From a phage, in sequence record PV467748.1: DNA of 64,000 nt. The stretch is one strand, 5' to 3'. Under the pieces are notes generated by a model that was not told the DNA's origin, made no database searches, and saw only the letters and a program-made list of their open reading frames with translations. How positions within the stretch are numbered: position 1 is the first letter of the stretch; each line of letters opens with the position of its first letter. The position numbers and the translations under genes are program-made. Below are positions 1 through 58,711 of this stretch, one piece after another.

Positions 1-2210
1 TAAGCCGCTTCCACGGCTTTCATGAATTTAACGATTTGAGCTACAGAAGCCTCGGTAATGGATGTTCCACGACGATACATGTAGTCCGAAACTAAATGGT
101 AATCAGATTCAAACTGTAGAGTCATTTTATCATTGTTACTTGAAGCATTATTGGTTAACGTATTGAACGTCGTGTTACAGATTTTCTTGATAACAGAAAG
201 TTTGTCATCAGTGATATACCCATGGAAATTCATATAACGGAATATATCATAGAAATTGCTCAGACGAGTATATGCTTCAGATACCGGCTTGTCACTGAAA
301 TACTTAGTCATGAAACCAAGCTCAGGGAACTTAGCGATGATTTCAAGATAATATCTTGCACGGGTATTGCTACCAATGTAGCCATCAATATCTACCGCAT
401 CCAATGCTTCGGCATAAGCTTCTAATGTAGCTTCCATCAAGCATTCGCATTGGCCTAACTTTTTAATCTTTTTGGCAATCTGAGGGCGGATGACATGGAA
501 TTCAGTAGCACCAATCAAATTAGCCATACGACACATGGTAGTGGTGTTGATGTCAAAGATACCATAAGCTTCGTCCATTCCCATGATATCAGAACGATTG
601 CCAAACAGAACATAACCTGTAATTTCTTCTGCTTCAGCGGCAGTTAAGTACAGGGTTTCATTAGCCCAACGCCCGTTTTTAATGAACCAACGATAAGCAC
701 TTGGTGATTTAGGACGCGGTTCTGACGAACGAACAGTAACCGGAATCCATGGCTTAACAATTTTATTCAGTTCAGAGACTTTATAAAAATGAATTGTGTC
801 GCCTTTAAAAAGTTCTTTAACCTTTTCAAGTTGCTGCATTTGCAACATTGAATTTGGGTCGACGAAAATAAGGTCTGTTCCGTATTTAGGAATATTGTGC
901 TCTTTAACAATTTTCTTGGCTGAAGCGCTGTTGTCCATTGCCAGGGCCCAAAGTCCTCGAACCAGAGGTACACGGCCCTTTTCATCATCATAAACAACAT
1001 GGATTTCTTTCTTATTAATGCCTAATAAATTACTAAGTCCTGCTACCGAAGAAGTATTACCGCTCGGCTTAATTCGTTTCAAACGCGGGTCTGAAATGAT
1101 TTCGTAAACCACACCTAAATTAATAAGGTCGTTTTGAAGGGTATAACGCTGGTATAATTTCTCATATGTCAATTTTTCTGTAGTAAACAGGCTAGTTCCA
1201 CCTTTTTTGGTAAGATAGTCACGAGCACTGTAACCAAGGTTAGAAAGGTCACGATAAACATGGCGTGGATTATCAGATTCAACCCATTCCTTCGTATCAT
1301 TTTTAAAGACCACTGCATCTAGTGCTTCAATACGGGTTGCAATATTTTCCATCGTACGTTTATCAAGAGACAACACTTCACGAGACGGAGCAATATCCAG
1401 TGAACCCATAGGGAACTTAATATAAACTACATCATGGCGAGTACGCATCCATGTGCCTTTATTATAAGCAGAATCCAATGGATAAACAATACCACCATAA
1501 ACTGCATAAAGCCCTGAACGTTCGAAGCTGCCATAATTTGTAGTGGTTACAGGATGATAATCGTCAAATTCAGGGAAATAATCAACTTCAACGCCATCAA
1601 CATCACCGAGTCCAATGAAAGGCCGCATGATATAACGAACTTCAGTTTCGAACTTACGGAAGTCTTCTTCGTCCACAGGAACTGTGATTTCGATGCCTGT
1701 TTTATCACCTGGCTGCATAGGTTCTACGAAAGTAGGTTTAATCTGTGGCCCATCACCATCCATATATGCTACATAACCACGAACTTCACCATTATGCCAT
1801 GAAGTGATATTAAACGTTTCGGTATAACTGAACGGAGATTTTGAACCAAGGCCAAAGCCACCGATGAAATCGTTAGAAGCGGTTTTGGATGATGCGAAAT
1901 AAGAGTTATACAACCCGGTTTCGTTTTCATCACCACGAATCTGGAAATCACTCATACCCGGACCGAAGTCACGGCACACAAAGCGAGGGTCCAGTTTACC
2001 AGGAACCTGTACTTTCCAACGTTCTTTATTACCATTCAGAATATGAGCGTCAATCATGTTAGTAATTAGTTCACGTACTACAGCACGTACTTTATTACTA
2101 TAAAGGTCTGATGACAAAATTTTAAAGACCTTAGGCGATGCCTGGATAGTAAAGCCTGTGGACTTAGCACCATTACCAATGATTTGTTCTTTTTCGGTTT
2201 CAATAATCAT
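1..2210 (-). CDS. rIIA: rIIA protein, N-terminal part (gene runs off the left edge of the window)
   Basis: ATG at 2210; translation MIIETEKEQIIGNGAKSTGFTIQASPKVFKILSSDLY... matches remembered T4 rIIA N-terminus; frame open to position 1; synteny with rIIA.1 and gene 39. Confidence 0.85.
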   Translation of the reverse strand, partial: MIIETEKEQIIGNGAKSTGFTIQASPKVFKILSSDLYSNKVRAVVRELITNMIDAHILNGNKERWKVQVPGKLDPRFVCRDFGPGMSDFQIRGDENETGLYNSYFASSKTASNDFIGGFGLGSKSPFSYTETFNITSWHNGEVRGYVAYMDGDGPQIKPTFVEPMQPGDKTGIEITVPVDEEDFRKFETEVRYIMRPFIGLGDVDGVEVDYFPEFDDYHPVTTTNYGSFERSGLYAVYGGIVYPLDSAYNKGTWMRTRHDVVYIKFPMGSLDIAPSREVLSLDKRTMENIATRIEALDAVVFKNDTKEWVESDNPRHVYRDLSNLGYSARDYLTKKGGTSLFTTEKLTYEKLYQRYTLQNDLINLGVVYEIISDPRLKRIKPSGNTSSVAGLSNLLGINKKEIHVVYDDEKGRVPLVRGLWALAMDNSASAKKIVKEHNIPKYGTDLIFVDPNSMLQMQQLEKVKELFKGDTIHFYKVSELNKIVKPWIPVTVRSSEPRPKSPSAYRWFIKNGRWANETLYLTAAEAEEITGYVLFGNRSDIMGMDEAYGIFDINTTTMCRMANLIGATEFHVIRPQIAKKIKKLGQCECLMEATLEAYAEALDAVDIDGYIGSNTRARYYLEIIAKFPELGFMTKYFSDKPVSEAYTRLSNFYDIFRYMNFHGYITDDKLSVIKKICNTTFNTLTNNASSNNDKMTLQFESDYHLVSDYMYRRGTSITEASVAQIVKFMKAVEAA

Positions 2211-5726: not shown

Positions 5727-5937
5727 TGTAAGTTTCCTTCCAGAAGTCGGTGCCTTCAGCAGTGATTTCACGGAACACTGCATAGATAGGGTTTTTATCA
5801 CCTTGATTTTCGTATACATAAACCGACGATAAATGAGAAAACGCATCAGAATGTTCCTTTTGAACCACGATTAAATCAGGGTTGAACAGAACATCTTCAA
5901 ATTCTTCACGAGTCGAGTTCACCGTAACTTTAGCCAT
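5719..5937 (-). CDS. hypothetical protein (72 aa)
   Basis: ORF preceded by an early-promoter-like element at 5941-6000. Confidence 0.45.
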   Translation of the reverse strand: MAKVTVNSTREEFEDVLFNPDLIVVQKEHSDAFSHLSSVYVYENQGDKNPIYAVFREITAEGTDFWKETYNA

Positions 5938-18416: not shown

Positions 18417-18746
18417 TTAGATTTCCTCGCAGAAGGCCCATTCAGCATGATAAACCGTAGCACCTTTAGTATCATTTAAACAAACCACATCTACCGGAGC
18501 AATTACACGATAAAGACGGGGTTCTCCTCCCACTGAACGAGCTGCACGTCCAGCATAAATCTTAGCCAAACCGATATCTTCAGTAAAGAACACTCGATTC
18601 AGGTTTTTCTTACGACCGGTTTCAGACAAAACTCCTGTTTCCTCAGGAGGACAAAGCATATTACCGATATTAGCAACACTACAACTTCCATGGTAATACA
18701 CTTTATATTCTGCTTTACAGTCGATGGTTTTCATTTTGTTCTCCAA
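18417..18746 (-). CDS. hypothetical protein (109 aa) with YYHGS motif
   Basis: own promoter at 18752-18790; T4 has no gene between 41 and dmd as far as I recall. Confidence 0.45.
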   Translation of the reverse strand: MENKMKTIDCKAEYKVYYHGSCSVANIGNMLCPPEETGVLSETGRKKNLNRVFFTEDIGLAKIYAGRAARSVGGEPRLYRVIAPVDVVCLNDTKGATVYHAEWAFCEEI

Positions 18747-18751
18747 GTTGA

Positions 18752-18790
18752 TAGGTCTATAGTATCATGCCTACAGGAGATGTAAACCCT
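18752..18790 (-). promoter_or_regulatory. T4-type early promoter
   Basis: minus GTTTACATCTCCTGTAGGCATGATACTATAGACC. Confidence 0.6.
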
Positions 18791-18816
18791 TAAAACAAAA
18801 AGGAGCCGAAGCTCCT
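18788..18816 (-). terminator. intrinsic terminator downstream of gene 41
   Basis: aggagc-cgaa-gctcct hairpin followed by a U-rich tract. Confidence 0.55.
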
Positions 18817-42818: not shown

Positions 42819-43070
42819 TTAAATTCCTAATACTTGTTTGAATGCTTCAGAACGGTCAAGTTCTGTTCCATATTTTTCGAGGTGTTCGTATTTTAAATCA
42901 TACACATCAGATAGTATATTATTATACGAACGAGTTAAAGCAGATTTCAATACTGAATAACTGTCCGGAAATTTACCGTGCTCTTTATAATAAGCTAGAG
43001 TAAGTTCACGAACCGCCTTATCGGCGGCCTCTACATATTCTTTACGCTTTGCCATTTTCGTCTCGCTCAA
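42819..43070 (-). CDS. hypothetical protein (83 aa)
   Basis: ORF only. Confidence 0.4.
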
Positions 43071-43263
43071 ATTTGTGCTTACAATGACGGCATTTATACT
43101 GAAGAGGGTTATGACGCCAATAAGTCAATTGGACCTGTTCAGTTCCACATTCAGGACAATTTGGAACATTCTTAGAAGCTCGTTCGCGACGTTCTACAAT
43201 TTTAATAATTTGATTCCAATCAGGAATACTTTGGTCGATATCATCGGCTAATTGGTATTTCAT
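43042..43263 (-). CDS. zinc-ribbon protein (73 aa)
   Basis: CPECG...CRHCKH. Confidence 0.4.
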
Positions 43264-45403: not shown

Positions 45404-46376
45404 TTAATCCTTAAGAAGATTTAAGATATCGATATATTTCTGGCGTTCAGCCTTAGCTTTGGCATTCAGACCAGAGAGTCGGAAAATCTCATCATCTTGT
45501 TGTTGAATTGTAACATTCAAGCAAGTAAGCAAATTGCTAAAATACTCGATTTGAGCTTGATGCTTCTCATTGCTGCGCACCGGTACAGGTTCTGGTTTAG
45601 GAGCTTGTTCTGAATGCTCCTCAGCCTGGTCTTTAATTTTATAAAGTTTAATACGCTGACCCACTCCAGTTTCGGCATCACCAAAACTAAGAACACCGCG
45701 CTGTTCTAATACAGACAGGGCCAATCGGAGATGGAACTTCCAGTTGTCATATTGACAACCACTAAAAGTTGAAATGGTATACTCATTTTCATTTCCGGGG
45801 TGGTTAACAATATTAAAGATAATCCGATCACCTGAACCATTAGTCTTAAAGGTCATTTGTTTATCTTGACCTTTTGCAAGTCGAGCACCAAGAGCCAGTA
45901 GACGTCGTTGGTTGGCATGAAGGTCTTGAACAACTTCGTCAAATGACATCGTCATCACCTGAACCATTAGTCTTAAAGGTCATTTGTTTATCTTGACCTT
46001 TTGCAAGTCGAGCACCAAGAGCCAGTAGACGTCGTTGGTTGGCATGAAGGTCTTGAACAACTTCGTCAAATGACATCGTCGGGATTAAACGTCCGTAGAG
46101 GTCATAGCCTTTGTTATAATTTTTAAGAATAATTTTGGCATTAGCACGAGACAACATACCCGTTTTACGAAGAGTTTTCATGACTCGGTCTTCTAACGTA
46201 AACGAACCTTTAGTCTTGTCAAAGATTTTAGTGAAGTCATCTTTAACAGTACAAACGTTGAACTTGTCCCACATCATATATAGAACCTTTTCAACTACTT
46301 CTTTAGTACTCGGAATACGACCAAATTTAATAACTTTTTTAACTTCAGAACGAATTTGATTAATTGCCTGTGACAT
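45404..46376 (-). pseudogene. gene disrupted by a 127-bp tandem duplication (two overlapping ORFs; removing one copy restores a 281-codon frame)
   Basis: track ORFs 45404..45967 and 45939..46376 both contain MSFDEVVQDLHANQRRLLALGARLAKGQDKQMTFKTNGSGD; 973 nt minus 127 = 846 = 282 codons. Confidence 0.6.
45827..46080. repeat. perfect tandem direct repeat, 2 x 127 bp
   Basis: 45827-45953 is identical to 45954-46080 by direct reading. Confidence 0.85.
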
Positions 46377-46439: not shown

Positions 46440-46964
46440 TTATGCGAGAACCGTCTTTAAACGCTCTTCAAATTTCTGAAGCAGAGCTTGGCGTTCAACT
46501 CGTTGTGATTTGTACTGCTCGATACGACCTGAAGTGAGGGCGTACTGTTCGTTTACTGATTCCCGCATGAATTCAGGAATCTCTTTACAAGCTTTGATTT
46601 CGTCAAACTTATCAATAACAGCTTGTTGTTCGGCAATCAGATTATCGAAATAAGCGATATCAGATTTAACGTTTGCCAGGTCGGATTCAGTAGGCATTAA
46701 ACGTTTGTTACGTTCAGCTTGATAAGCTTGATTGTTTTCACGACTCCAGTGAAGAGTACGTTTTTTGTTAGTGTTTTTATAGAGCTCTACAATACCAACT
46801 GAATCGATGACTGCAATCCAGTTCCAACGGCTTTTGTAAATCTCTCCTCCAGATACGGTAATCTCATTACCACAAGCAACGTCGTTAAAGAACTTGCTTT
46901 GTTTTTCAGATTTGAAATTACCATTGTTAAAATTAATCAGTGAAAAAATATCTTTAGCGTTCAT
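46440..46964 (-). CDS. hypothetical protein (174 aa)
   Basis: SD GGAGG; early promoter at 46975-47018. Confidence 0.45.
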   Translation of the reverse strand: MNAKDIFSLINFNNGNFKSEKQSKFFNDVACGNEITVSGGEIYKSRWNWIAVIDSVGIVELYKNTNKKRTLHWSRENNQAYQAERNKRLMPTESDLANVKSDIAYFDNLIAEQQAVIDKFDEIKACKEIPEFMRESVNEQYALTSGRIEQYKSQRVERQALLQKFEERLKTVLA

Positions 46965-46974
46965 GATAACCTCC

Positions 46975-47018
46975 AGTAGTTGATAGGTCTATAGTATCAT
47001 TTCTACTGGAGATGTAAA
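46975..47018 (-). promoter_or_regulatory. T4-type early promoter
   Basis: minus GTTTACATCTCCAGTAGAAATGATACTATAGACC. Confidence 0.6.
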
Positions 47019-47021
47019 CAA

Positions 47022-47363
47022 CTAATAGAAACTTTTTTCACCTGCTTGACCACTAAACCATGCGGATTGAGTGTTCTCTTTCCGTTGGTGTTTAATACGA
47101 ATAAGGTATTCGTTCCTGATGGCGCAGAGTTCATCTCTGAAGTCGACTGCCAACTTAACCTGCTTACGGTCTAGATTTATTAAGGCCTGGGTCTTCGCGG
47201 CCAAGGCCAGTCTCTTGTAGTCTCCTTCTTCACAATCGGTTTTGTAAACCTTCTCGGCGAATTGGTGTTTAAATTCATTATCATAGTCTTCAATAGACTG
47301 TTTCATGGCATTAGAGTATTTCAACTCTGCTTTTATAAGGTCATAACTAAATTGTTCGAACAT
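47022..47363 (-). CDS. hypothetical protein (113 aa)
   Basis: ORF only. Confidence 0.4.
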   Translation of the reverse strand: MFEQFSYDLIKAELKYSNAMKQSIEDYDNEFKHQFAEKVYKTDCEEGDYKRLALAAKTQALINLDRKQVKLAVDFRDELCAIRNEYLIRIKHQRKENTQSAWFSGQAGEKSFY

Positions 47364-51440: not shown

Positions 51441-51537
51441 TTTGTTCTCCTCATTAGTTGATAGGTCTATAGTATCACGTTCCTAGAGGATGTAAACACC
51501 TAAACGAAAAAAGGTCCCACCGAAGTGAGACCTTTGA

Positions 51538-56084: not shown

Positions 56085-56099
56085 TTTGTAATCTCCTGT

Positions 56100-56142
56100 A
56101 GTTGATAGGTCTATAGTACCACGTCTACAGGAGATGTAAACT
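56100..56142 (-). promoter_or_regulatory. T4-type early promoter upstream of regB
   Basis: minus GTTTACATCTCCTGTAGACGTGGTACTATAGACC. Confidence 0.6.
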
Positions 56143-56145
56143 GCT

Positions 56146-56397
56146 TTATTCTTGGAATGGGGTAAGTTTTCCGACAGCAGAACAAATTTCTACCAGCACC
56201 GGATAAAACTCTTTCACCTGTTCAAGGCGCTGGGCTGCGTACTGCAATTCACCTTCTTCAATACAAGCCGTTTGGTCGTCAAGCAAGTATTTGTGGTAGC
56301 CGGTACAGGCTTCACCGATGATGCGTTGGAATTCTTGCAAACTTTCGATTTTCATTAGTATTTCTCTTCCGGTTGGAAAACGGAACGACAGGCCCAC
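56146..56397 (-). CDS. hypothetical protein (83 aa)
   Basis: ORF only. Confidence 0.4.
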   Translation of the reverse strand: MGLSFRFPTGREILMKIESLQEFQRIIGEACTGYHKYLLDDQTACIEEGELQYAAQRLEQVKEFYPVLVEICSAVGKLTPFQE

Positions 56398-58212: not shown

Positions 58213-58629
58213 TTAAGCGTAAATAGCCTTGCCGTAATGTTTGTACCAGGTAGGACGCTGTGCAATTTTTTCGTCCAAACGAGCTTGTGAAATGGCGATA
58301 GAAGCTTCGTGAGGAACATAATCACCACGGAATTCCTGAGGAATGTCACTAATGTCCTGGACCGTAGTATCCTTGATATTAAAGCCACGTTTTAAACATT
58401 CAGCTATAAGCTCAATTTGACGCTTACGTAAAAATTCAAGCTTATCATAAAAGAATGTAACGTGGCCTGTACCAAGGATAAAAGTAGGACTGATTTTAAA
58501 ATCACGAACACGTTTACCGTTAGCAACATGCTTACGAACTGCACCGAAAACACGTGGTAATTCACGATATTCGGCCATTAAGTGTTGGTCAGCCAATTCA
58601 GATACTAAGGTAAGGTTGATACGAGTCAT
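58213..58629 (-). CDS. denV: endonuclease V (pyrimidine-dimer DNA glycosylase)
   Basis: 138 aa, near-identical to remembered T4 DenV ([31 protein letters not shown]...). Confidence 0.95.
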
Positions 58630-58680
58630 TTTTAATCTCCTGTAGTTGATAGGTCTATAGTATCATGCCTACAGGAGATG
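58630..58680 (-). promoter_or_regulatory. T4-type early promoter upstream of denV
   Basis: minus GTGTACATCTCCTGTAGGCATGATACTATAGACC with flanking dyad CTCCTGTAG/CTACAGGAG. Confidence 0.55.
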
Positions 58681-58711
58681 TACACTGCTTTTTATCTATA
58701 AGAGGGCTTTA

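Follow-up and report, generated by a model that had tools for sequence, protein, structure and literature searches.

A perfect 127-bp tandem duplication that splits nrdC.6 in a Dhakavirus genome record is very probably an assembly artefact

The stretch of DNA analysed here (64,000 nucleotides of phage sequence record PV467748.1, hereafter the window) contains a perfect 127-bp tandem duplication within a homologue of the T4-like gene nrdC.6, with the result that one gene reads as two. On the basis of circumstantial features we consider it highly probable that this duplication was introduced during assembly or finishing and is absent from the real phage genome; in the real phage nrdC.6 is very probably intact. 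The features concerned are as follows.

45827..45953 (no strand): first copy (copy 1) of the 127-bp unit, the same as copy 2 in every base; the match does not continue leftward
45954..46080 (no strand): copy 2 of the 127-bp unit, the extra 127 nt absent from QL01, JS98 and ABTNLS3 in alignment
45934..45973 (no strand): copy-to-copy junction, between 45953 and 45954, the sole sequence that a single-copy genome would lack
45404..46376 (minus strand): nrdC.6 homologue with the extra copy inserted, 846 nt and 281 aa once one copy is removed
45939..46376 (minus strand): apparent 145-aa ORF, the N-terminal part of NrdC.6 followed by an out-of-frame 4-aa tail, DDVI
45404..45967 (minus strand): apparent 187-aa ORF, six out-of-frame residues (MVQVMT) followed by the C-terminal part of NrdC.6

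Direct string comparison shows the two copies to be identical, and Tandem Repeats Finder (TRF) reports a period of 127, 2.0 copies, 100% matches, no indels and a score of 508. Identity extends 0 bp beyond the unit on the left and 0 bp on the right, which makes the unit exactly 127 bp, and the end points are devoid of microhomology (0 bp common to either boundary). The left flank reads AATCCG/ATCACC, the junction CATCGTC/ATCACC and the right flank CATCGTC/GGGATT, where the slash marks the boundary; the 40-mer across the junction at 45953/45954 is CTTCGTCAAATGACATCGTCATCACCTGAACCATTAGTCT. No other perfect long repeat, and no other perfect tandem repeat, occurs in the 64 kb of the window, and an identity of this length lies far beyond what chance could produce.

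Since 127 is not divisible by three (127 mod 3 = 1), each copy gained or lost shifts the reading frame, and for this reason the gene looks frameshifted. The 145-aa and 187-aa ORFs overlap on the minus strand, and both encode the same 41-residue peptide, MSFDEVVQDLHANQRRLLALGARLAKGQDKQMTFKTNGSGD. When one copy is deleted in silico, a single ORF of 846 nt (281 aa plus stop) is obtained, equal in length to nrdC.6 of phage JS98 (846 nt). The original prediction had described a perfect 127-bp tandem duplication at 45827–45953 and 45954–46080, a frameshift that splits one ORF into two, a peptide common to both and a 281-codon gene regained by deletion of one copy; these structural claims agree with the TRF and string comparisons, with the two overlapping ORFs found, with the presence of the peptide in each and with the computed 846-nt frame.

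The restored protein matches the profile phrog_2257 from end to end (residues 1–281 on profile positions 1–303, E = 2.9e-125) and is 96–97% identical to the NrdC.6 proteins of Dhakavirus. By this full-length match it belongs to the NrdC.6 family (phrog_2257; PF26899 as precomputed), which is annotated in PHROGs as 'unknown function'. The placement of the gene is syntenic with JS98, between orf86 and nrdC.8: an orf86-like gene and a small 66-aa ORF lie to one side and nrdC.8 to the other. Searches of local Pfam, NCBIfam and PDB sequences gave no match for the restored protein, to thioredoxin or to anything else. The label 'thioredoxin' is nonetheless attached to NrdC.6 homologues, and to several neighbouring nrdC.x genes, in many GenBank and UniRef entries; it appears to have spread from the naming of the nrdC.x genes. 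The notion that T4 nrdC.6 and nrdC.7 are two halves of the gene studied here was considered and rejected: in Shigella phage Sf25 the NrdC.7-like gene is separate and lies upstream.

The DNA of the window comes from a JS98-like member of Dhakavirus, a genus of T4-like phages; its best matches among database records reach ~95% identity, and none is an exact match. A comparison with 92 CDSs of phage QL01 showed 87 to be present as intact single HSPs. The remaining five comprise two that are absent, two small ORFs that are matched in part, and NrdC.6, which is the sole split gene of the 92 and is recovered as two HSPs with overlapping query ranges (1–140 and 97–280). With 87 of 92 genes intact and only nrdC.6 split, we rejected the idea that the sequence is poor overall or that the genome is decaying.

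A 1301-bp query spanning the locus aligns with its best relatives over ~1171–1174 bp, that is, the length of the query minus 127, and alignment with QL01, JS98 and ABTNLS3 places a clean 127-nt insertion in the window. When the 100 nt centred on the junction between the copies were used as a query, none of 58 related phage records matched them in one piece: in 51 the two halves of the query map to opposite ends of one unit and together span ~125 bp, and in the other seven just one half matches. The comparison with related phages that had been proposed as a check on the original prediction thus recovers the single-copy form. The junction 40-mer has no exact match in IMG/VR, and the exact 145-aa and 187-aa proteins are absent from a collection of 15 billion proteins. 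Nor was an exact copy of the restored protein, of a 181-aa variant, or of the flanking NrdC.8-like and orf86-like proteins present in large protein and contig collections.

The lengths of NrdC.6 homologues were surveyed in 104 clusters from a collection of 5.8 billion proteins. In 101 of these the protein has 273–298 aa; the three outlying clusters (207, 378 and 194 aa) do not represent a split form with this duplication. The 194-aa form is a truncated NrdC.6 from Tequatrovirus (P0104; 14 member sequences, from Logan assemblies) that diverges after '…STDYVNMG', apparently by frameshift.

The length of the repeat is itself informative: it equals the maximum k-mer of the assembler SPAdes. An overlap of 127 bp has been described as the length of the artificial end overlap in SPAdes contigs (PMC5923482), and in the announcement of phage U136B 'terminal repeats of 127 bp' were removed and the genome was then re-opened to match a reference (PMC8104045). 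For phage AXL1 the SPAdes contig measured 64,089 bp and the true genome 63,962 bp, the 127-bp duplication at the ends having been disproved by PCR and Sanger sequencing (PMC9206674). The general case is set out in the account of CheckV: when a circular template is broken at random, a repeat of k-mer length remains at both ends (PMC8116208). The duplication in the window resembles these overlaps in being exactly 127 bp long, in the 100% identity of its copies, in its arbitrary position, in its lack of microhomology and in its occurrence in a circularly permuted phage whose record has been re-opened. There is one difference: SPAdes overlaps sit at the two ends of a record, whereas here the copies are adjacent and internal, as is expected if a contig is rotated without trimming.

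Evidence that the record was rotated is found at the first bases of the window.

1..2 (minus strand): start of the window, second and third plus-strand bases of the rIIA stop codon, from alignment to JS98, JS10 and KIT01

In alignments, window position 1 corresponds to position 16 in both JS98 and JS10, and to position 2 in KIT01; the rIIA CDS of JS98 ends at 15–17 (TTA) and the window opens TAAGCC. The first base of the window is thus the second of the rIIA stop codon, and the record has demonstrably been re-opened at the start that is conventional for T4. It was therefore rotated after assembly, which means that the old contig ends had to be joined somewhere. A minor corollary is that the record origin interrupts the rIIA stop codon, provided that window position 1 is also record position 1.

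These observations suggest a simple route to the duplication. T4-like phages are circularly permuted, and short-read assembly of such a phage would give a circular graph. SPAdes would break the circle at an arbitrary point and deliver a linear contig whose first k bases equal its last k, with k = 127. The depositor would then have cut the contig at the end of rIIA and joined the old ends head to tail with the overlap untrimmed. The original contig would have begun with copy 2 (45954..46080) as its first 127 bases and ended with copy 1 (45827..45953) as its last 127. Two steps in this account go beyond the record itself: we infer the use of SPAdes with k = 127 and the position of the old contig ends, 45953/45954. 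An arbitrary contig break also explains why the end points show no microhomology and why they fall in the middle of a conserved ORF.

A variant of the same error, which we count within our confidence in an artefact and which by itself seems unlikely, is that two graph-adjacent contigs, or the pieces of a reference-guided scaffold, were joined with the k overlap unmerged. Adjacent contigs of a de Bruijn graph also overlap by k, and by this route, as by rotation, the 127-bp overlap would become an internal perfect tandem duplication, here within nrdC.6. The Sf25 record, described below, shows that repeated untrimmed joins (three of 249 bp in a 6-kb stretch) can find their way into GenBank; against this variant, the 64-kb window holds one such repeat only. 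It differs from rotation in a detail of workflow, and the correction is identical.

The artefact is also found in its raw form within the genus. In Shigella phage PSD9 (MZ561532.1; a Dhakavirus record of 169,768 bp that is declared circular) the first 127 bp are repeated exactly as the last 127.

MZ561532.1, 1–127 and 169642–169768: 127-bp terminal repeat of PSD9

We conclude that the PSD9 record is probably 127 bp too long and carries an untrimmed overlap of SPAdes type. It shares with the window the genus and the exact length of the repeat, and closing the PSD9 circle makes the same kind of false tandem duplication; the difference is that the PSD9 repeat is still at the record ends, with little or none of it in annotated CDS, whereas that of the window is inside nrdC.6. 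PSD9 was one of six un-rotated Dhakavirus records checked. The other five lack a k-length overlap, which implies that most depositors trim, and this counts against an artefact.

A second record bears on the question through the 378-aa outlier noted above. The NrdC.6 homologue of Shigella phage Sf25 (MF327009.1; Tequatrovirus), Sf25_gp220, has 378 aa, compared to ~295 aa in its relatives, owing to an in-frame tandem duplication of its own. This tandem duplication and two others, all perfect and with a unit of 249 bp, lie within 6 kb at a spacing of ~1.2 kb, in NrdC.6-, NrdC.5- and NrdC.4-like genes.

MF327009.1, 3026–3524, 4220–4719 and 5460–5958 of the segment examined: 249-bp tandem duplications of Sf25

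The long form of NrdC.6 was found in Sf25 only, among 742 records, and we regard the Sf25 duplications as almost certainly an assembly artefact specific to that record. The case is like that of the window in that a perfect tandem duplication affects an NrdC.6 homologue in a single record. It differs in the unit (249 bp and in frame, as against 127 bp and frameshifting), in the number of duplications (three, as against one), in the position within the gene, and in that 249 bp corresponds to no k-mer value but is near a read length. That nrdC.6 might be a hot spot for duplication was also considered, and is ruled out: the three 249-bp duplications of Sf25 are in adjacent genes and unique among the 742 records.

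A genuine event must be weighed against this evidence. That the phage stock very recently acquired a tandem duplication, by illegitimate recombination or replication slippage, which knocked out a dispensable nrdC.6, is in our judgment improbable, although several facts accord with it. The deposited sequence itself carries the duplication; the copies would be identical since no time has elapsed; a genuine duplication may have any length, 127 bp included; and nrdC.6, which has no known function and lies in a variable, accessory region where the adjacent small genes differ between relatives, could be lost without the knock-out phage ceasing to be viable. T4 is known to form tandem duplications, and the natural examples (such as those of the rII region) are, like the present one, head-to-tail direct repeats in a T4-like genome. 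However, the classical T4 duplications are of kilobase scale, arise at short homologies and segregate fast, whereas the one in the window has 127 bp, no homology at its end points and a length that corresponds to an assembler parameter. Spontaneous deletions and duplications in T4 rII usually occur between short direct repeats; a short direct repeat was looked for at the end points and found at neither. T4-type recombination is efficient on homologies of ~50 bp or more, and such recombination should remove a tandem repeat of 127 bp often enough to be measured (a search of the literature on how stable natural tandem duplications of T4 are gave nothing directly useful). For a natural event, an exact match to the SPAdes maximum k-mer is estimated at roughly 1% or less. 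Neither the junction nor the split form was seen in the 58 related records, IMG/VR or the protein collections, and since the record has been rotated a route to an artefact is at hand.

It has also been proposed that the locus is a reversible switch, in which a change between one and two copies toggles NrdC.6 or yields separate N- and C-terminal products. We find this scarcely credible: that copy number alters the frame is a necessary property of a switch but not a specific one, and while homologous recombination offers a plausible mechanism for contraction from two copies to one, the flanks lack short repeats by which two copies could be remade from one, so that the change would be one-way; copy-number variation was looked for among the 58 related records and none was seen; 101 of 104 homologue clusters have the usual length and none has this split; known contingency loci consist of short units in many copies, not of one 127-bp unit; and the sole other duplicated homologue, that of Sf25, is an artefact. 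The fuller form of the proposal, a real duplication through which recombination switches NrdC.6 on and off, or splits its domains, in this lineage, would further have the match to the SPAdes k-mer be a coincidence, and its probability is negligible.

The original prediction had left three readings side by side: a very recent event, an assembly artefact and a reversible switch. They can now be ranked. An artefact is strongly favoured, a recent event is a minority view and the switch is unsupported. The observations that favour an artefact are the length of the repeat, which is that of the SPAdes k-mer, and its perfection, the lack of microhomology, the re-opening of the record at rIIA, the single-copy state of relatives and the 127-bp overlap in a sister record.

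As biology, the duplication matters little, nrdC.6 being most likely intact. For the record it matters more: the deposited sequence is probably 127 bp too long and shows two false ORFs, of 145 and 187 aa, where a single NrdC.6 of 281 aa belongs. The correction is to delete one 127-bp copy after a check of the reads and to annotate a single NrdC.6 of 281 aa. Left in place, an error of this type would mislead pseudogene counts, pangenome clustering and scans for frameshifts or programmed switches. Errors of this class were met in two more T4-like records, PSD9 and Sf25, and the case of Sf25 shows that false duplications in deposited T4-like genomes are not rare. In such scans, perfect tandem or terminal repeats of k-mer length (55, 77, 99 or 127) or of read length should be treated as artefacts until the reads say otherwise.

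Other features of the window were noted in passing. The window lacks counterparts of two QL01 genes (205 and 43 aa), in the regions corresponding to QL01_60 and QL01_70, and the nrdC.2-like gene at 43045–43245 is only 66% identical to that of QL01 over part of its length; such differences are the ordinary mosaicism of accessory regions in T4-like phages. A family of dispersed repeats of ~55–63 nt, located upstream of minus-strand genes, extends over positions 5934–62564 of the window. On the plus strand its members read …GTTGATAGGTCTATAGTATCA…GTAAACA…, and the following are examples.

18731–18793 (plus-strand motif): dispersed repeat
46963–47025 (plus-strand motif): dispersed repeat
51441–51503 (plus-strand motif): dispersed repeat
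56085–56147 (plus-strand motif): dispersed repeat
58629–58691 (plus-strand motif): dispersed repeat

Read on the minus strand, these repeats look like putative early promoters of T4 type, with TGTTTAC as the candidate −35 element and TATAGAC or TACTAT as the candidate −10 element; early-promoter-like repeats are to be expected in an early-gene region of this kind.
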